This document shows positions 2,139 through 49,740 of a stretch of DNA of 64,000 nucleotides, piece after piece. This stretch comes from Candidatus Aenigmatarchaeota archaeon (GTDB lineage Archaea; Aenigmatarchaeota; Aenigmatarchaeia; PWEA01; JACQIF01). The notes beneath the pieces are model-generated. The model was not told the origin of the DNA and made no database searches. It saw only the letters and a program-made list of their open reading frames with translations. The stretch spans positions 785,090-849,089 of the forward strand of contig CP066684.1 in NCBI GenBank assembly GCA_016432325.1, given 5' to 3'. Both the position numbers and the translations under genes were made by a program. Position 1 is the stretch's first letter. The number at the start of each line of letters is the position of its first letter.

Positions 2139-4385
2139 ATGCAACTGAGAAAACTGGCAAGCACTGCCGTCGGAGCCCTATTGGCCGGCGCAACGCTCGC
2201 TGTTCCAGCGCTCGGTGCCTCTTTGGATGACCTCCCATCGCCGTTCGTTTCGGACGGTGAGGCGGACTTCACCATAGTGGTAGGCGCGGACGCGAATGCA
2301 GCCGACATAGTAGGAGCCGTAGACATCGCAGCCAGACTCGGCGGTGAGACCGTAACAACGGAATCCGCTGCGGCTGGAGAAGGCCAGGAAGACGTCGAGC
2401 TCGGAGAGGTTCTCTCCACTGAGTTCGGCACAACCCTGGACGACGACGATGTAGGCGTGCTACAAGACACATCGATAGGTTTCGACAGCGAAAACTGGGA
2501 CGTCCACGACGAGATCCGTCTCGCTTCGACAGGCCCTGCTCTTGAAACGAGCTTGAGCTCGAACGAGGAGGACTACAAGGCAGCCCCGGTGATGGAGATA
2601 ACGGCAAAAGGCGACATCGCCTACTACTACCTGTTCGACGAGGCCATAAACCTCTCGGCAAGAGTAGACAGCGACACTGAGCTCGAGATAGACTTCTTGG
2701 GCAAGCAGCTGACCATATCGTCCATAACCGATGCCGACACAATGAAGGCCCAGGTAGGAGAAGAGATTGACTTGGACGCGGGAGAGTCCGCGACCGTTGA
2801 AGGCAAGGTTGTGACGCTGATACAGACCAGCTCCAGCGACGCCAAGATAGATGTCGACGGCACCACAGGCGTAATAGCCGAAGGCAGCACCAAGACAGTC
2901 AACGGCCTTGAGATAAAGGTGGACACCATCTTCGACGACGAAGGATCCGTGGACGACTCCGCAATCCTGATAGTCGGCGAGGACGCTGAAAAGACATACG
3001 ACAACAACGACGAGTACATAGACTTCTGCAGCACGACAGGAGGAGACGACGACTGCGACGAAGACAACCCTGACTGGGTGTGGGTTCTCAACGGCCTCAC
3101 AACCCTACAGAAGGGTGACGTCACGGCAGGCGGCGGCCCGACGATAGGCATACAGAACGACTTCGTCCAGGATGCGAACACAAAGGAACCGCTTCTGGAA
3201 GGAGAGACTCTCTGGCTGCCTCACGACTTTGCCAAGATAGCCTTCGAGGACTTGGTGGCCGACGACTTCGTTAAGGTGACGATAGAGTTCAACGACGCAA
3301 TCGACGTGTCTGACGCGGACTTCGGAGGCATCAACTTCGGAACAAGCGAAGACGGCTTCCTCATAACGGCCGACGTAGAGGAGTCGCTTGTGCTGGAAGA
3401 CCTTGCATCCGGATGGAACGCAAGCTACATCACCGCTGACGTGTCGACAGAGAAGATAGCCCTCATACTGAACGAATCGGCGATGGCTATACAGGTCTTC
3501 TACTGGGACACGAACAACGACGAAGTGCTGGCCGGAAACCTTTCGATACTGCAGGGAGCAGACGCCCTTGCAGCCGGTCTCGACAGGTTCGGCTTCGTGG
3601 ACTTCAAGGACACGACTGGTTCGACAAGAATGCCGCTGGCATTGAACATCTCGAACGAATCGGCGGACAACCAGTTCTTCCTGGGGTTCATGAACAACGA
3701 CACCGAAGTGGCGGACGAAGCGACAGACGACCTGTTCATACAAATGGGAACAGCTGCCCTGATTGACAGGGGAACAGGAACAGCCGCATTCGATTCGTTG
3801 GGCCCAGTGGTGGACGATTCGGAGACAGGAGAACTGCTGTACGGCAGGAGCTCCAACTCCACGGCACCGAACACCCTGAAGGTAGGCACGCGCGACGAAG
3901 ACCAGCTGACGGCATACGGCGTCAAGGTAGGAGACCCCGACTCCAACGGAGCATCTGACAAGGTGATCCTGTGGGTTCCGGGCGACCGCCAGGAAGGCCG
4001 CATAACCATCGGCTCTAGCGCAACGGTAACCGCGGCAGGCGAGCGCAGCGGACAGATAACAACGTCTGTCTCGAAGCTCGACACCGAAACCACGGCAGAG
4101 TCTGAGGGCAACCTCATACTCGTGGGCGGACCATGCGCCAACTCGCTGGTTGCGCAGCTTGCTGACGCAGACAAGTACGGCTGGACGTGCGACGAATCGG
4201 TAGCCTTGGGCGGAAGCGGATACACCATCGAGATAGTCGAGGATGCATTCGCTGACGGCCAGGTAGCCCTGATCGTTGCAGGCCAGAACGCAGACGACAC
4301 CCGCGATGCGGCATCCCGCGTACAGACCTTCGACACAGACGGTCTGACAGGAATGTCCGTCAGGACAGGCGTCTACGCAGCCTAG
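2139..4385 (+). CDS. secreted acidic cell-surface (S-layer-like) protein
   Basis: 748 aa; N-terminal signal peptide (LASTAVGALLAGATLAVPALGAS); very D/E/T-rich; C-terminal NLILVGGPCANSLVAQLAD motif typical of archaeal S-layer domains; strong promoter and long leader. Confidence 0.55.
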   Translation: MQLRKLASTAVGALLAGATLAVPALGASLDDLPSPFVSDGEADFTIVVGADANAADIVGAVDIAARLGGETVTTESAAAGEGQEDVELGEVLSTEFGTTLDDDDVGVLQDTSIGFDSENWDVHDEIRLASTGPALETSLSSNEEDYKAAPVMEITAKGDIAYYYLFDEAINLSARVDSDTELEIDFLGKQLTISSITDADTMKAQVGEEIDLDAGESATVEGKVVTLIQTSSSDAKIDVDGTTGVIAEGSTKTVNGLEIKVDTIFDDEGSVDDSAILIVGEDAEKTYDNNDEYIDFCSTTGGDDDCDEDNPDWVWVLNGLTTLQKGDVTAGGGPTIGIQNDFVQDANTKEPLLEGETLWLPHDFAKIAFEDLVADDFVKVTIEFNDAIDVSDADFGGINFGTSEDGFLITADVEESLVLEDLASGWNASYITADVSTEKIALILNESAMAIQVFYWDTNNDEVLAGNLSILQGADALAAGLDRFGFVDFKDTTGSTRMPLALNISNESADNQFFLGFMNNDTEVADEATDDLFIQMGTAALIDRGTGTAAFDSLGPVVDDSETGELLYGRSSNSTAPNTLKVGTRDEDQLTAYGVKVGDPDSNGASDKVILWVPGDRQEGRITIGSSATVTAAGERSGQITTSVSKLDTETTAESEGNLILVGGPCANSLVAQLADADKYGWTCDESVALGGSGYTIEIVEDAFADGQVALIVAGQNADDTRDAASRVQTFDTDGLTGMSVRTGVYAA

Positions 4386-14414: not shown

Positions 14415-14594
14415 ATGTCCTTATGCAAGAAGTGCGGCGTCCCGGCCAGAGGCTTCAAATGCGACATGTGCGGCGCAGAAACCCCGGTGCACGATGCGAA
14501 TCACTCCTGCGGAGCGAGACATCTGATGCCTAAATGCTCCACGTGCAACAAGGCCGAAGTTCTGTGCGGTTGCGCGACCAAGCGGCGCACGTAG
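14415..14594 (+). CDS. small zinc-ribbon protein (multiple CxxC)
   Basis: about 60 aa: CKKC, CDMC, CSTC, CGC motifs; start trimmed to second Met. Confidence 0.35.
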   Translation: MSLCKKCGVPARGFKCDMCGAETPVHDANHSCGARHLMPKCSTCNKAEVLCGCATKRRT

Positions 14595-17369: not shown

Positions 17370-17546
17370 ATGCAATCAACCGCGCAAGATACAATGTGCA
17401 CAACCTGTGGCAAGAGCGTCTTCGGAGCGTCGCAGAGCGTCCGCTTCCTGTGCCCGCGCTGCGGAGCCGCAGAGATCGTGCGCTGCAAGGACTGCCGCGT
17501 GCTCAAGAACAAGTACGCGTGCGGTTGCGGATTCACAGGACCATGA
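17370..17546 (+). CDS. small zinc-finger protein (4 x CxxC)
   Basis: 58 aa: CTTCG...CPRCG...CKDCR...CGCG; TATA (TATATAAAA) about 25 nt upstream, leaderless. Confidence 0.5.
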   Translation: MQSTAQDTMCTTCGKSVFGASQSVRFLCPRCGAAEIVRCKDCRVLKNKYACGCGFTGP

Positions 17547-17614: not shown

Positions 17615-18040
17615 ATGCCGGGAATGTTCGCTGCAAGGAAGCTCAAGAATCGAAGGCAACACCTGAGATGGAAGGAGGTAAAGTACAGGACGCGCACCCT
17701 GAAACTCAAGGAGAAGAAAGACCCGTTGGAAGGCGCCCCTCAGGCCCGCGGAATCGTGCTGGAAAAGCGCACGATTGAACAGAAGCAACCTTCTTCAGGA
17801 CTTGCGAAAGCCGTACGCATTCAGCTCATCAAGAACAACAAGCAGATAACCGCGTTCCTGCCGAGAGACGGCGCGGTGAAGCACGTGGACGAGCACGACA
17901 TCGTTCACGTTCAGGGACTGCACGGCTCGCAGGGCGGCGCCAAAGGCTCCCTGTGGGGCGTGAAGTGGGCCGTCTTCAAGGTCAACGACATAGCGCTCGA
18001 ACAACTCAGAACCGGCAAGAAACAGAAGCCGAGCAGGTAG
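17615..18040 (+). CDS. rps12: 30S ribosomal protein S12 (uS12)
   Basis: PLEGAPQARGIVLEK...AVRIQLIKNNKQITAF.P.DGA...DEHD typical of archaeal uS12. Confidence 0.9.
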   Translation: MPGMFAARKLKNRRQHLRWKEVKYRTRTLKLKEKKDPLEGAPQARGIVLEKRTIEQKQPSSGLAKAVRIQLIKNNKQITAFLPRDGAVKHVDEHDIVHVQGLHGSQGGAKGSLWGVKWAVFKVNDIALEQLRTGKKQKPSR

Positions 18041-41894: not shown

Positions 41895-42062
41895 CTACTT
41901 CACGGACACCTTCATCAACGTGCGGTTTATCTTGCCGCACTTCTTGCAGAATATCTCCGTGCTGTAGGAGCCGTCGCCCGAAGGGCCGAGCTTCATGCCA
42001 GGAATGAGCACTTCGAGCTTCGTTTCGCCCGAACCGCATCTCTTGCAAACGAGGTTCTCCAT
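41895..42062 (-). CDS. small zinc-ribbon protein (55 aa), not in ORF track
   Basis: MENLVCKRCGSGETKLEVLIPGMKLGPSGDGSYSTEIFCKKCGKINRTLMKVSVK; CxxC-x26-CxxC; diverges from hemK-like gene around a shared TATATAAA. Confidence 0.4.
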   Translation of the reverse strand: MENLVCKRCGSGETKLEVLIPGMKLGPSGDGSYSTEIFCKKCGKINRTLMKVSVK

Positions 42063-44863: not shown

Positions 44864-44973
44864 GGACCCGTAGCTCAGGTGGTTAGAGCGCTGCTCTGAT
44901 AGTTGGACATCGATACGTTGATGTCCTTTTGGTCAGGCAGAGGCCCGGAGTTCAAATCTCCGCGGGTCCACCA
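44864..44973 (+). tRNA. tRNA-Ile (GAU) with canonical 33-nt intron after position 37
   Basis: Hand-folded: acceptor GGACCCG/CGGGUCC, D-arm GCUC-AGGUGGUUA-GAGC, anticodon stem CUGCU/GGCAG, loop CUGAUA|intron|A, T-arm CGGAG-UUCAAAU-CUCCG, encoded CCA; TATA (TTTTTATA) about 25 nt upstream. Confidence 0.75.
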
Positions 44974-45733: not shown

Positions 45734-46027
45734 CTACGCCTCTACCGCTCCTGAATCGAGAGCGGCATAGGGAACGTTGACGCGTAGCGCAAGCGTGTAG
45801 AACGCAGCGCTGTTCTCGCCGCGCTCTTCCCTGAATACGGCGCTCTGCCTTTCAAGGCCCTGGAGACACGATCTCACGTCTTTCGTTTCCCATCCCGGGA
45901 ATGCATCGTATATGGTTCTTTCCTCGACTTCGCCGTCTCTTGCGATTATGTTCAGAATCCAGCTCTCGATGACGGTCTTGCGTTTCTCTGTTGCGCCGTC
46001 GCGCGCGAACCGCGAGAACGTGTTCAT
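45734..46027 (-). CDS. hypothetical protein
   Basis: Track ORF 45734..46198 trimmed to internal Met (MNTFSRF) because the 5' part overlaps a better-supported small Cys-rich ORF. Confidence 0.35.
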   Translation of the reverse strand: MNTFSRFARDGATEKRKTVIESWILNIIARDGEVEERTIYDAFPGWETKDVRSCLQGLERQSAVFREERGENSAAFYTLALRVNVPYAALDSGAVEA

Positions 46028-46077
46028 CGCGTCCAGTTGGACAAGATAGGATTTATACGCGAGAGATAAACAGTCGT

Positions 46078-46209
46078 TTACTTCTTCGGCTTCGCCTTGC
46101 ACGCCCTGCAGCCGTCGCGGCCTATGCAGGAGAGGCATACCTGCGACTTGCAGGCAACGCACTCGTGCATCTCTCCGACGCGCTGGCAGGCTTCGCATGC
46201 GCCTCTCAT
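46078..46209 (-). CDS. small 4xCxxC zinc-ribbon protein (43 aa), not in ORF track
   Basis: MRGACEACQRVGEMHECVACKSQVCLSCIGRDGCRACKAKPKK; TATA (TTTATATC on minus) about 25 nt upstream. Confidence 0.45.
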   Translation of the reverse strand: MRGACEACQRVGEMHECVACKSQVCLSCIGRDGCRACKAKPKK

Positions 46210-46240
46210 AGAAATCACATTCGTAAATGCAGGATATAAA

Positions 46241-46420
46241 TCAGAACGTTTCCTCTTCTGACTCGTCTGGCGATGCTTCTGCCATCGTGGCGCGGCCGTG
46301 GCATATCTGGCAGCCGTAGTCCTGCAGGCACTCGGCGCACACGCGCGCGGCGCAGACCGGGCATTCGCGCAGCGTGCGCACTACCTCTCCGCAATGCTGG
46401 CATACTCCTGCCATGTACAT
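46241..46420 (-). CDS. small 4xCxxC zinc-ribbon protein (paralog)
   Basis: MYMAGVCQHCGEVVRTLRECPVCAARVCAECLQDYGCQICHG...; same Cys spacing as 46078..46209; start may instead be upstream Met at 46489. Confidence 0.45.
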   Translation of the reverse strand: MYMAGVCQHCGEVVRTLRECPVCAARVCAECLQDYGCQICHGRATMAEASPDESEEETF

Positions 46421-46569
46421 ATCACCTGCCGGACAAGACGCATGAAACCCGGGGGCTTCACGGATGCCTCGACACTCGCGTAGAAACAAAAATTCATGTA
46501 TTTAACCTTTCTTAGGCCGACAGTCGACGAATTTTTAGCTTAAATAAAGTTGCGCAGAAGACGACTCGT

Positions 46570-46645
46570 GCCGCCATAGCTCAGCTAGTAGAGCACCTGA
46601 CTTGTAATCAGGGGGTCGAGGGGGCAGAGCCCTCTGGCGGCTCCA
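46570..46645 (+). tRNA. tRNA-Thr (UGU), intronless, with non-canonical D-loop and T-loop
   Basis: Hand-folded: perfect cloverleaf with acceptor GCCGCCA/UGGCGGC, anticodon loop CUUGUAA, encoded CCA, TATA about 27 nt upstream; D-loop AGCUAGUA lacks GG, T-loop GGCAGAG replaces the usual UUCRAAU. Confidence 0.55.
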
Positions 46646-48202: not shown

Positions 48203-48907
48203 TCATTCCAACACGTACTCCATTCGCTGGACGTCTTTCCCCTTGTTGGCAAGGCCGACTATGCGCACGCGGCCCAATTCTTGGAGGTTAGAGACGTGCG
48301 TGCCTCCGCACGGGCAGAGATCATAATCCTTTATCCTGATGAGGCGCAGTTGTTGGACGTTCTTCGGGATGCGTTCTATGTCGGTGCGCTGCGCGTTCGT
48401 GGCGTTCAGCGCGTCCTCCCGCGACATGTACTCTATGGAGACGGGCCTCTTTTCAGATATTAGCGCGTTCGCTCGCTGTTCGATGCTCCGCAGGTCATCG
48501 TCCGAGAAGTGCGCCGGTGCGAAATCTATGCGCGAGCGCTCCGGATGTATCTGGTTCCCCACCGTGGACGCCTTGAAGAGTTCCAGCACGACGGCCGAGA
48601 CGAGATGCTGAGAAGTGTGCATCCTCATGTTCGCGTGGCGGCGCGTCCAGTCGACGACGCAGTGCACGGAAACGCCTGCGGGAACGTTCTTGTCGACGAA
48701 GTGTTTGACTTGCCCTTTGTCTTTACGCGCATCCGTTACGTTCGCGGCGCCGCCATCGAATGTCATGGTCCCTGTGTCGTGTTCCTGCCCGCCGCCCGTG
48801 GGGTAGAACACTGTGCGGTCCAGAACGACCCAGTTCGGTCCGCTCTCAATTACGCGCGCGTCGCACTCGCGCAGATAGCAGTCGTTGAGATAGAGAAGGT
48901 CGGTCAT
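48203..48907 (-). CDS. alaX: alanyl-tRNA editing protein AlaX
   Basis: HTSQH and CPCGGTH zinc-binding motifs of the AlaRS editing domain; track ORF trimmed to MTDLLYL. Confidence 0.75.
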   Translation of the reverse strand: MTDLLYLNDCYLRECDARVIESGPNWVVLDRTVFYPTGGGQEHDTGTMTFDGGAANVTDARKDKGQVKHFVDKNVPAGVSVHCVVDWTRRHANMRMHTSQHLVSAVVLELFKASTVGNQIHPERSRIDFAPAHFSDDDLRSIEQRANALISEKRPVSIEYMSREDALNATNAQRTDIERIPKNVQQLRLIRIKDYDLCPCGGTHVSNLQELGRVRIVGLANKGKDVQRMEYVLE

Positions 48908-48911
48908 CGGA

Positions 48912-49163
48912 TCACCTGTATATGTTTTTCCTGTGCCCAAGAGAAAGGATAAAGACGACCTTCTCTTTATTGTCAAGCTTTGCCAATACGCGGTAGTCGC
49001 CGACGCGCAGTTTATAATCCACCCTGCCTGTAAGCCGTTCCAGATAGTGCGCCGGGCGGGAGGCGGCCCTTTCCAGACTGTCCAGGATGCGTTTGGCCGT
49101 GGCGTTGTCCAGTTTCCGCAGTTCGGAGACCGCCTCGTCGGAGAACACAAGCCTGAAGGTCAC
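48912..49163 (-). CDS. relE: RelE/ParE-family type II toxin
   Basis: 83 aa; C-terminal YRVLAKLDNKEKVVFILSLGHRKNIY typical of RelE/ParE. Confidence 0.7.
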   Translation of the reverse strand: MTFRLVFSDEAVSELRKLDNATAKRILDSLERAASRPAHYLERLTGRVDYKLRVGDYRVLAKLDNKEKVVFILSLGHRKNIYR

Positions 49164-49402
49164 CGTATCCCCAGCTCTTCTCTAATCTCCCGCAGCGTGC
49201 GGGTCCTTCCCCTCTTCACGTCTGCCAGGGCTCTTAGAAGAGAGGCTTTGAACTCGTCGGTATACTCTCCCTCATCGTCTCCCGAAGGAACGAGTTCCAG
49301 AAGAGCGTTCAGCAGCTCGTCATACGTTTCGCCCTCAGTTTCCTTGAGCCGCGCGAGCCTCCCCCTCGTCTCCCTGCTTATCTGTATTGTGGTGTAGGAC
49401 AT
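49160..49402 (-). CDS. type II antitoxin
   Basis: 80 aa; stop overlaps toxin GTG start (GTGA); acidic C-terminal half. Confidence 0.55.
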   Translation of the reverse strand: MSYTTIQISRETRGRLARLKETEGETYDELLNALLELVPSGDDEGEYTDEFKASLLRALADVKRGRTRTLREIREELGIR

Positions 49403-49488
49403 ATTATGGATATATTATACAACAACTATATAAAGGTTGCATTCGGAAGAACGCCCCCTTTAAATAACTTTCCACGCAAACGCTACCT

Positions 49489-49740
49489 ATGATGGCCGCG
49501 CAGGAGTATCGAAAGTTGTCGTTCGGAGCAGACGACTTGACCAAGCCGCCGAAGAAAGGGCTGTACGTCCCTCAGTTCAAGGTCGACGTTCCCCAAGGAT
49601 ATAGGTTTTACACCGGCGAGCCGCTCGTTTCACGGGTCGACCGCTGGGCCACTCTTGACATGAACGCCATGTTGGCCGAGGAGTACGGCGGCGTCTGGCG
49701 CCAGCCGAATATGGACGAGTGGGCCGCGTGGTCCGGGTAA
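49489..49740 (+). CDS. hypothetical protein
   Basis: 83 aa; no family recognised. Confidence 0.35.
   Translation: MMAAQEYRKLSFGADDLTKPPKKGLYVPQFKVDVPQGYRFYTGEPLVSRVDRWATLDMNAMLAEEYGGVWRQPNMDEWAAWSG

Follow-up and report, generated by a model that had tools for sequence, protein, structure and literature searches.

Analysis of a 64-kb stretch of DNA from a Candidatus Aenigmatarchaeota archaeon (contig CP066684.1, positions 785,090 to 849,089; "the window" below means this whole stretch of 64,000 nucleotides) reveals two adjacent minus-strand open reading frames (ORFs), designated here ZnA and ZnB, that are, to judge from their sequences, real protein-coding and paralogous genes. Both belong to a family of micro-proteins for which we coined the name BBX, and each product is predicted to form a two-zinc cross-brace domain that would act as an interaction module; this overall picture, built on sequence comparison and modelling, is one that we regard as rather probable. 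A first-pass annotation of the same DNA had described the pair as tandem, cysteine-rich paralogues of the zinc-ribbon type. The two ORFs are present where it placed them, with products of 43 and 59 amino acids (aa; 57 aa is the more likely length of the second), and their paralogy holds: ZnA and ZnB are 34% identical over 41 aa (BLASTP, E = 2e-6), and one profile recovers both. About 19% of the residues are cysteine, and metal binding is predicted. The shared cysteine spacing that had been claimed stands as a pattern, CxxC-x9-CxxC-x4-CxxC-x5-CxxC in ZnA and CxxC-x8-CxxC-x4-CxxC-x5-CxxC in ZnB, with the first spacer amended from x9/x10 to x9/x8. The genes lie head to tail with a spacer of 31 nucleotides (nt), and their coordinates are given in Table 1.

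The case for real genes is made by conserved frames, low ratios of nonsynonymous to synonymous substitution (dN/dS), codon usage and conserved start signals. Homologues of ZnA with 86% and 68% aa identity occur in a second Aenigmatarchaeota metagenome-assembled genome (MAG) and in ENA metagenome contigs, and homologues of ZnB were found by tblastn as uncalled ORFs on the same contigs (L001-L005), 77-79% identical over all 43 residues. Nucleotide identity to these relatives is only 71-81%, and third codon positions carry most of the differences (ZnA against L001, 22 of 28; ZnB, 15-18 of 24-32). The conservation of reading frames and of cysteine spacing in relatives, by which the first-pass annotation proposed to check the ORFs, is borne out, with all eight cysteines kept in both genes. 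In the comparison of ZnA with L001, 19 of the 24 changed codons are synonymous; dN/dS is 0.19 for ZnA against L002 and 0.11-0.12 for ZnB, values obtained over three lineages and only where the ratio was computable, and by this measure purifying selection acts on both copies. When a codon-usage log-likelihood is trained on the long genes of the window, the own frame ranks best of six for ZnA (GC content at third codon positions, GC3, 0.74), for ZnB (GC3 0.84) and for the 97-aa gene downstream. Negative scores were given to the overlapping alternative frames, namely a 62-aa ORF at 46215-46403 and the 5' part of a 154-aa ORF at 45734-46198 that overlaps ZnB in another frame. The earlier remark that one of the pair overlaps a longer spurious ORF is thus supported for the 5' part, which looks spurious by its codon usage, and the real downstream gene is the 97-aa frame at 45734-46027.

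The notion that one or both ORFs are untranslated chance frames in GC-rich DNA draws on the absence of ZnB from the GenBank and ENA gene calls examined for this clade (it is called as a gene only in Logan assemblies) and on the presence of several overlapping ORFs of similar or greater length on both strands. It is effectively refuted by the dN/dS of 0.11-0.19 over three lineages despite the divergent nucleotide sequences, by the retention of eight cysteines and start signals, by codon usage that favours the ZnA and ZnB frames over the overlapping ones, and by at least about 60 homologues in other genomes. The window also exceeds what chance delivers: it holds exactly 5 ORFs of 30-90 aa that begin with ATG and carry two or more CxxC motifs, the same five as in the first-pass annotation, against 0.7 ± 0.9 expected from 100 first-order Markov resamplings of the window (maximum 3), and 2 ORFs with at least four such motifs, against 0 in all 100 resamplings.

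The start of ZnA is probably the second in-frame ATG, at 46414, because GGTGAT stands 6 nt before it, all homologues begin with MAGVCQ, and the GenBank product HYS81_05230, a "hypothetical protein" of a Candidatus Aenigmatarchaeota MAG to which ZnA is 100% identical, has 57 aa. A GTGAT motif lies 3-5 nt 5' of the ATG in many members of the family. Upstream of ZnB, a TATA-like box follows the ZnA stop directly, and a TTTATATTC or TTATATTC element occurs at equal distance from the ZnB ATG in L001 and L002-L005; this distance implies a leaderless or very short-leader mRNA.

Beyond the immediate clade, the BBX family emerged only by sensitive means. Neither ZnA nor ZnB scores above threshold with any Pfam or NCBIfam model, Pfam has no model devoted to the family, and no NCBIfam model covers its members. 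Queried with ZnA, ZnB and an alignment of the two, word-indexed searches for homologues reached no further than the same clade, and the distant members came solely from an exhaustive HMMER scan and from a degenerate DNA pattern. The HMMER scan, run over 1.84 billion representative proteins with a profile built from both proteins and two ZnA homologues, gave 12 matches at E<=1e-3, the other members lying at 5e-8 to 6e-4; in 11 of the 12 the match spans the whole domain, and these are proteins of 43-62 aa that stand alone and, where named, come from Aenigmatarchaeota or Nanohaloarchaea. The twelfth, P0015 (279 aa), was rejected, as it matches only in repeated 14-residue stretches. The DNA pattern, composed of the last three cysteine pairs with the conserved Val and Gly and applied to one genome per GTDB species, found at least 120 loci, of which at least about 60 hold true members. 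Among the matches listed, the named source genomes are all Aenigmatarchaeota, Nanohaloarchaeota (including Nanohalobium, Nanoanaerosalina and Asbonarchaeaceae) or labelled "Nanoarchaeota" or unclassified archaeon, and the members are all stand-alone proteins of 41-64 aa. The other pattern loci, nearly all bacterial with two Methanosarcinales contigs, were discarded as out-of-frame or repetitive cysteine-rich chance matches, with the exception of one bacterial protein (L089, described below). Since the loci number at least 120 and the pattern required cysteine at pairs 2-4, the range of the family may be wider.

Members follow the pattern M-x(1-5)-C-x2-C-x7-9-C-x2-C-x3-V-C-x2-C-x4-G-C-x2-C, which both ZnA and ZnB fit; an example close to the consensus is MKIGICQCCGGVATQTCKFCGALVCIKCTTSNGCKVCEGRKKI. 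In an alignment of 72 sequences, C7, C20, C23, V27, G36, C37 and C40 (numbering of the 59-aa ZnA) are invariant, that is, the first cysteine, both cysteines of pairs 2 and 4, the Val before pair 3 and the Gly before pair 4; the remaining three cysteines are at least 90% conserved. Conservation is otherwise modest, with a median identity of about 44%. A search of the literature on B-box or binuclear treble-clef proteins in DPANN and other archaea found no description of the family. What is new is a family without a Pfam or NCBIfam model or a description found in the literature, a neighbourhood conserved in two DPANN phyla, a lineage-specific duplication into basic and acidic-tailed copies and, as predicted, a B-box-like rather than ribbon-like architecture in a free-standing archaeal protein of 43 residues; cysteine-rich zinc micro-proteins as a kind, and the fold class itself, are already known.

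Several observations on individual sequences accompany this survey. P0007 (MFP4045718.1; L086 5071-5211), a member of 46 aa, is misnamed "orotate phosphoribosyltransferase" in GenBank. A 201-aa protein in the Polyangia bacterium MAG DATFWX010000180.1 (L089 830-1435, plus strand) carries the full cysteine pattern at its N terminus, CAGCGRPAQAQCAACHSLVCGACVMAQGCRLC, and behind it a hydrophobic, possibly membrane-spanning stretch; it could be a non-archaeal relative in fused form or a product of convergence. Nothing supports an origin of the family from viruses or mobile elements: neither a PHROG match nor a phage tblastn match was obtained. A pattern scan of IMG/VR returned 29 matches, which are low-complexity cysteine-rich chance matches except for one that is family-like: on the 97.9-kb viral contig IMGVR_UViG_3300028610_000244 (L139, minus strand, ~4154-4216), a predicted 193-aa protein ends in a BBX-like domain, CVSCMAKQELFTCGGCGCAVCKACLYTEGCKICAFSGRRQ.

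The predicted fold is one interleaved two-zinc domain and not a series of ribbons, a reading that draws together the x4 spacer, the Pfam matches and the variation of the ligands. A spacer of four residues between pairs 2 and 3 is a hallmark of RING, B-box, AN1 and PHD fingers. The B-box model zf-B_box (PF00643) matches 39 of the 72 members at E<=1; the best, the L039 member, scores 27.0 bits and is the only one past the cutoff of 24.1, with others at 19.6-21.1 bits. Further Pfam matches among the 72 are to the ANCHR-like BBOX (PF22586; 29 members), Prok-RING_2 (26), zf-AN1 (13), zf-HIT (11) and RING types (9), and B-box 1 of TRIM25 is what the family profile matches best among PDB sequences. 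Pairs 2 and 4 never vary across the 72 sequences, all ligand substitutions falling in pairs 1 and 3. P0009 has Asp in place of Cys at the second ligand (pair 1) and His at the sixth (C-x2-H in pair 3), and P0011 and P0012 have lost the fifth ligand and carry His at the sixth (G-x2-H in pair 3). Such a distribution is expected if pairs 1 and 3 form one dispensable site and pairs 2 and 4 the other; sequential sites are disfavoured because substitutions in pairs 1 and 3 would damage both.

Modelling points in the same direction. An AlphaFold2 model of the ZnA core built on 15 family sequences reached a mean predicted local distance difference test (pLDDT) of 87.7, with 90-95 over the first 40 residues; a model from 4 sequences (pLDDT 63) was set aside. 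The top Foldseek matches of the 15-sequence model are the FYVE-type domain of CARP2 (template modelling score, TM, 0.65), the RING of PML (TM 0.62), ZZ and AN1, with C1 also found. Nearly all matches are two-zinc interleaved domains, and zinc-ribbon proteins are few and rank low in both match lists; none of the matches is individually significant, as expected for 40 residues. We therefore consider ZnA and ZnB predicted members of the RING-like class of binuclear treble clefs, in which B-box 1 and AN1 stand nearest and the HIT finger is also among the closest known types; on their sequence scores they are not placed in any of those Pfam families.

Comparison with known systems helps to define what BBX shares with each and where it departs. 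B-box 1 (PF00643; TRIM25, MID1) has the pattern C-x2-C-x7-12-C-x2-C-x4-C-x2-[CH]-x3-6-H-x2-8-H, which ZnA, ZnB and all 72 members follow exactly as far as the sixth ligand, spacers included; the predicted fold class of BBX is the same binuclear cross-brace as in B-box and ANCHR-like domains. In contrast, BBX ends in G-C-x2-C after x5, so that all eight ligands are typically cysteine (C8) with no H...H, and the alignments to the hidden Markov model end near profile position 30 of 42. BBX proteins are also stand-alone, of about 43 aa and archaeal, whereas in eukaryotes the B-box is a module within large proteins of the TRIM or CONSTANS type; no ubiquitin-system context surrounds the BBX genes. 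AN1 fingers follow C-x2-C-x9-12-C-x1-2-C-x4-C-x2-H-x5-H-x-C. AN1 (PF01428; Cuz1/ZFAND1, PDB 5ij4) thus has the same x4 and x5 spacers as BBX, and P0009, P0011 and P0012 resemble it further in their His at the sixth ligand. However, no member reaches the gathering score (best 17.6 against 27.9 bits among the 13 weak matches), the last pair of BBX is CxxC and not HxC, and AN1 proteins work with the proteasome and Cdc48 in eukaryotes, for which BBX has no counterpart in context.

Prok-RING_2 (PF14445) is a prokaryotic cross-brace finger with eight ligands, and its 26 sub-threshold matches span nearly the whole BBX domain (for ZnA, E = 0.029), yet BBX scores only 15-17 bits against a cutoff of 22.4. 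Prok-RING families are usually domains of larger proteins tied to ubiquitin-like conjugation systems; BBX proteins differ in being stand-alone and without E1, E2 or JAB neighbours. The Haloferax volcanii C(P)XCG micro-proteins (e.g., HVO_0758), which have fewer than 70 aa and CxxC knuckles, are often unannotated and have mostly unknown partners (PMC11241148, PMC10716476), are of the same general class as BBX. They mostly carry two motifs and one zinc in a ribbon-like pocket, whereas BBX has four motifs with spacing of the cross-brace type, and no sequence relation between the two was detectable. Separately, P0009 falls just short of the cutoff of the archaeal family DUF2180 (21.0 against 22.2 bits), which hints at a link.

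In other genomes, BBX genes occupy a recurring block: a divergent FEN1 gene precedes a MarR-like gene and BBX on one strand, and these converge with p76, aEF-1β and a COG2888 gene on the opposite strand, BBX being closest to p76 and COG2888 farthest upstream in the transcribed order. This block is wholly or partly present in most of the at least 60 GTDB loci, with BBX in single copy within the part retrieved. The aEF-1β gene (PF00736) is convergent with BBX at no fewer than 42 of about 60 loci, and the gene ends overlap by 4 nt in at least 7; a COG2888/HVO_2753-type gene adjoins aEF-1β at 37 loci or more. Directly upstream of BBX on the same strand, at a minimum of 21-22 loci, stands a gene for a winged-helix protein of 156-164 aa, MarR_2-like and with 1ku9/MJ0223 as its nearest solved relative; it lies within a few nt of the BBX ATG, which implies co-transcription. 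The p76 protein itself, of about 76 aa, conserved and without a Pfam match, is encoded between aEF-1β and BBX on the aEF-1β strand (L063 560-790, minus strand, and at least some 20 other Aenigmatarchaeota-type loci).

The locus in the window departs from this arrangement: no homologue of aEF-1β, FEN1, p76 or the MarR-like protein was detected anywhere in the 64 kb, and the block is absent around ZnA and ZnB. In L001-L005 the two genes are about 0.7-1 kb apart with opposite-strand genes between them, comprising a metallo-β-lactamase (MBL)-fold hydrolase in all five, for which the window has no homologue, and in the ENA contigs L002-L005 an 81-aa gene as well. Two BBX copies were found only in the ZnA/ZnB clade among the matches listed, and these copies have diverged. 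Non-halophilic members of the family are basic, with a median net charge of +5, an isoelectric point (pI) of about 9 and K/R-rich tails, and ZnB (net charge +5, tail KAKPKK) fits this pattern. ZnA has a net charge of -6 and its clade ranges from -6 to -8, owing to an acidic tail of 16-21 residues, which makes it an outlier among Aenigmatarchaeota-type members; the only other member as acidic is the Nanohalobium protein L122 (net charge -6), also with a long acidic tail. Against the family consensus, median identity is 44% for the ZnA core and 35% for the ZnB core, where it falls to 17% once the cysteines are left out. The likely history is that in the lineage of the window the BBX gene left its ancestral neighbourhood and duplicated, ZnB keeping the ancestral basic tail as its core diverged, and ZnA keeping a consensus-like core and gaining its long acidic tail.

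In the mechanism that we propose, each protein would be one small domain with two interleaved Zn2+, pairs 1 and 3 forming one site and pairs 2 and 4 the other, as modelled above. Like other stand-alone binuclear fingers, ZnA and ZnB have no catalytic residues and would most likely serve as rigid, zinc-stabilised docking modules, their partner being a protein or a nucleic acid involved in transcription or translation. A transcriptional role may run through the co-transcribed MarR-like regulator, and a translational one through the COG2888-aEF-1β neighbourhood. The basic, canonical form, ZnB, might bind nucleic acid or an acidic surface, and the acidic-tailed ZnA may be a sub- or neo-functionalised form that possibly competes with or modulates ZnB. 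Any specific partner for BBX should be taken as tentative at most.

Several findings weigh against this interpretation. ZnA and ZnB fall below every Pfam cutoff (best matches Zn_ribbon_6, 15.8 bits, and Prok-RING_2, 15.0 bits), neither matches zf-B_box even at E<=10, and the last ligand pair, GCxxC, is unlike the His-His of B-boxes. AlphaFold models of metal sites can also mislead, as a tetrahedral zinc site was built in HVO_2753 that nuclear magnetic resonance (NMR) showed to be metal-free (PMC11241148). As to function, no conserved neighbour occurs in the window, so inference from context transfers weakly to ZnA and ZnB, and the association with aEF-1β is convergent and not co-transcribed and may be inherited synteny only.

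The structural alternative is that each protein is a sequential double zinc ribbon or rubredoxin-like fold with sites formed by pairs 1+2 and 3+4, as in HVO_2753, where two sequential ribbon-like pockets hold zinc in only one (PMC11241148). In its favour, four CxxC knuckles are packed into fewer than 60 aa in both, HVO_2753/COG2888 proteins (PF07754; PDB 6ydh) are likewise archaeal, stand-alone and of about 60 aa, their gene shares the conserved neighbourhood with BBX in most DPANN relatives and adjoins it in many genomes, so that an ancient duplication is possible, and the best Pfam match of ZnA, at E = 0.015, is to the "double zinc ribbon" model Zn_ribbon_6 (15.8 bits; cutoff 25). Yet the COG2888 spacing is CxxC-x13-CxxC-x6/7-CxxC-x8-CxxC, and the BBX spacers of 4 between pairs 2 and 3 and of 5 between pairs 3 and 4 leave no room for a second hairpin. 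ZnA and ZnB have no match to PF07754, where the window's genuine HVO_2753 homologue scores 52 bits, and none to NF011481; they have no C-terminal ...C-x-x-C-G-[FW]-x-G-P motif, and only 1 of the 72 members matches NCBIfam PRK14890, weakly (E = 0.011). Together with ligand variation confined to pairs 1 and 3, these comparisons make a double ribbon unlikely and identify COG2888/HVO_2753 and BBX, on sequence grounds, as different families. The label "zinc ribbon" of the first-pass annotation is probably wrong for the same reasons, namely the x4 spacer, the cross-brace Pfam matches and the ligand pattern, and in the profile comparison with zinc-ribbon families that it proposed, the Zn_ribbon_6 match of ZnA stays below the cutoff.

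Two alternatives concern function, and to both we give quite a low probability. ZnA and ZnB could handle metals or redox signals, as a metallothionein-like buffer or chaperone, an Fe rubredoxin-like carrier, or a thiol switch controlling the MarR-like regulator. The high cysteine content speaks for this, as does the operon shared with a MarR-family regulator in at least about 21 genomes; regulators of that family often respond to oxidants or metals. For some Haloferax C(P)XCG micro-proteins, moreover, the bound metal is not zinc (PMC11241148). A structural zinc domain agrees better than a flexible thiolate cluster with the ligand geometry, the confident compact fold and the invariant Gly and Val; the conserved neighbourhood holds no transporter or detoxification genes, and no desulforedoxin or rubredoxin family signal appears beyond one weak match. 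Alternatively, BBX could be a lineage-specific small protein associated with the ribosome or a translation factor, with ZnA and ZnB as duplicates of it; COG2888 itself was recognised as ribosome-bound only in cryo-electron microscopy structures, its homologues being chains in archaeal 30S structures. BBX adjoins the COG2888-aEF-1β pair in 36-42 of at least about 60 species from two phyla, and its members are small and, in non-halophiles, basic (pI ~9), like many archaeal zinc-containing ribosomal proteins. Against this stand the convergent orientation, which precludes a single transcript, the modest conservation and the strongly acidic ZnA; in archaeal ribosome structures of the PDB, none of them from DPANN, the profile matched only COG2888-type chains, with non-significant E of 0.6 and 2.2.

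Returning to the two-zinc docking module, its widest form would make BBX a near-universal component of gene expression in Aenigmatarchaeota and Nanohaloarchaeota, either the obligatory partner of the MJ0223-like regulator or a ribosome- or aEF-1-associated factor, and a minimal archaeal finger of the B-box/AN1/RING-like kind. We hold this wider claim to be improbable as it stands. Were it true, a largely eukaryotic class of binuclear fingers would gain an archaeal root, and the ZnA/ZnB pair would illustrate how a factor of this kind divides into effector and modulator. Independently of it, DPANN genomes are heavily reduced, and the retention of a 43-aa gene across two phyla in a fixed block with a regulator, aEF-1β and a ribosomal zinc protein makes a basic role likely. 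If the interleaved fold is correct, BBX proteins would be among the smallest free-standing B-box/RING-like fingers, with a bearing on the origin of a mostly eukaryotic class. Very small proteins are systematically missed, and defining the family corrects the annotation for at least 60 DPANN species; the basic and acidic-tailed copies offer a tractable pair for how mini-domains diversify.

Table 1. Features of the ZnA/ZnB locus and other cysteine-rich ORFs, in positions of the window
Feature	Position	Strand	Remarks
ZnA coding sequence	46241..46414	minus	57 aa + stop, MAGVCQHC...EEETF; C8 core at residues 5-38, acidic C-terminal tail
ZnA from first in-frame ATG	46241-46420	minus	59 aa: MYMAGVCQHCGEVVRTLRECPVCAARVCAECLQDYGCQICHGRATMAEASPDESEEETF
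ZnB coding sequence	46078..46209	minus	43 aa + stop, MRGACEACQRVGEMHECVACKSQVCLSCIGRDGCRACKAKPKK (MRGACEAC...KAKPKK); C8 core, short basic tail
TATA-like box of ZnB	46233..46240	minus	TTTATATC; directly after ZnA stop; end ~23-25 nt before ZnB ATG
Shine-Dalgarno-like GGTGAT of ZnA	46421..46426	minus	6 nt upstream of ATG 46414
Candidate ZnA promoter element	46498..46507	minus	GGTTAAATAC; same decamer upstream of ZnA homologue in L001; putative promoter role
97-aa gene directly downstream of ZnB	45734..46027	minus	own TATAAAT; called as gene in L008, L010
tRNA gene	46570..46642	plus	Rfam RF00005, 56.2 bits; anticodon UGU by eye; divergent from ZnA, marks upstream boundary of locus
HVO_2753/COG2888/PRK14890-family four-CxxC Zn-ribbon protein	17370..17546	plus	known ribosome-bound; not a ZnA/ZnB paralogue
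Cys/His-rich ORF, 59 aa	14415..14594	plus	alternative ATG 14397 gives 65 aa; own frame best of six, weakly
ORF, 55 aa, two CxxC	41895..42062	minus	strong codon-usage support, log-likelihood ratio 0.56 per codon

The wider set of tiny cysteine-rich ORFs to which the first-pass annotation had assigned the pair was found to be one in part only. The three further ORFs exist, at 14415-14594, 17370-17546 and 41895-42062 (the first two on the plus strand, a detail previously left unstated), and each does have a TATA-like element upstream, as had been said; their cysteine spacing differs, and the families to which they belong are unrelated. Membership of the COG2888 family is clear for the ORF at 17370-17546, with PF07754 at 4.5e-14 and 52.4 bits (cutoff 33.2), NF011481 at 66.5 bits (cutoff 61), the C terminus CGCGFTGP, and E-values of 2e-12 to 4e-8 against the ribosome chains 9fny_A1, 6skf_Az and 6sw9_C and the NMR structure of HVO_2753 (6ydh_A). 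It lies directly upstream of rpS12 (17615-18040), 29 kb from ZnA and ZnB; elsewhere COG2888 pairs with aEF-1β. The ORFs at 14415-14594 and 41895-42062 have no Pfam or NCBIfam match above cutoff and no detectable relation to ZnA and ZnB. Weak tblastn matches of the 14415 ORF near BBX genes (L107, L048, L090) proved to be zinc knuckles of methionyl-tRNA synthetase and were dismissed. What unites the five ORFs is no more than the general abundance of cysteine-rich micro-proteins in archaea, as documented in Haloferax (PMC11241148).

Turning to the surroundings of the locus, the tRNA gene upstream of ZnA is divergent from it in L001 also. This tRNA has an unusual T-loop, GGCAGAG in place of the canonical TTCRANY, and was missed by ARAGORN even with the intron search. 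A second Rfam tRNA lies at 44864-44970 (plus strand, 57 bits), which ARAGORN with intron search reads as tRNA-Ile(GAU) with a 33-nt intron; at its default settings ARAGORN reports no tRNA in the whole window, against two by Rfam. On the other side, a homologue of the 97-aa gene follows ZnB in L001 too (37% identity, E = 4e-11). Its product has no Pfam, PDB or PHROG match, and a winged-helix fold is a guess from its sequence; a relationship to the MarR-like partner of BBX was considered and rejected, with an hhalign probability of 0.7% and nothing significant by hmmsearch. Farther upstream of ZnA and ZnB, at ~48203-49700 on the minus strand and on the identical Logan contigs L008/L009, lie a ParE-toxin gene and a DUF7557 gene, which may form a toxin-antitoxin pair, followed by a gene for a truncated AlaX-like protein with an editing domain (tRNA_SAD).

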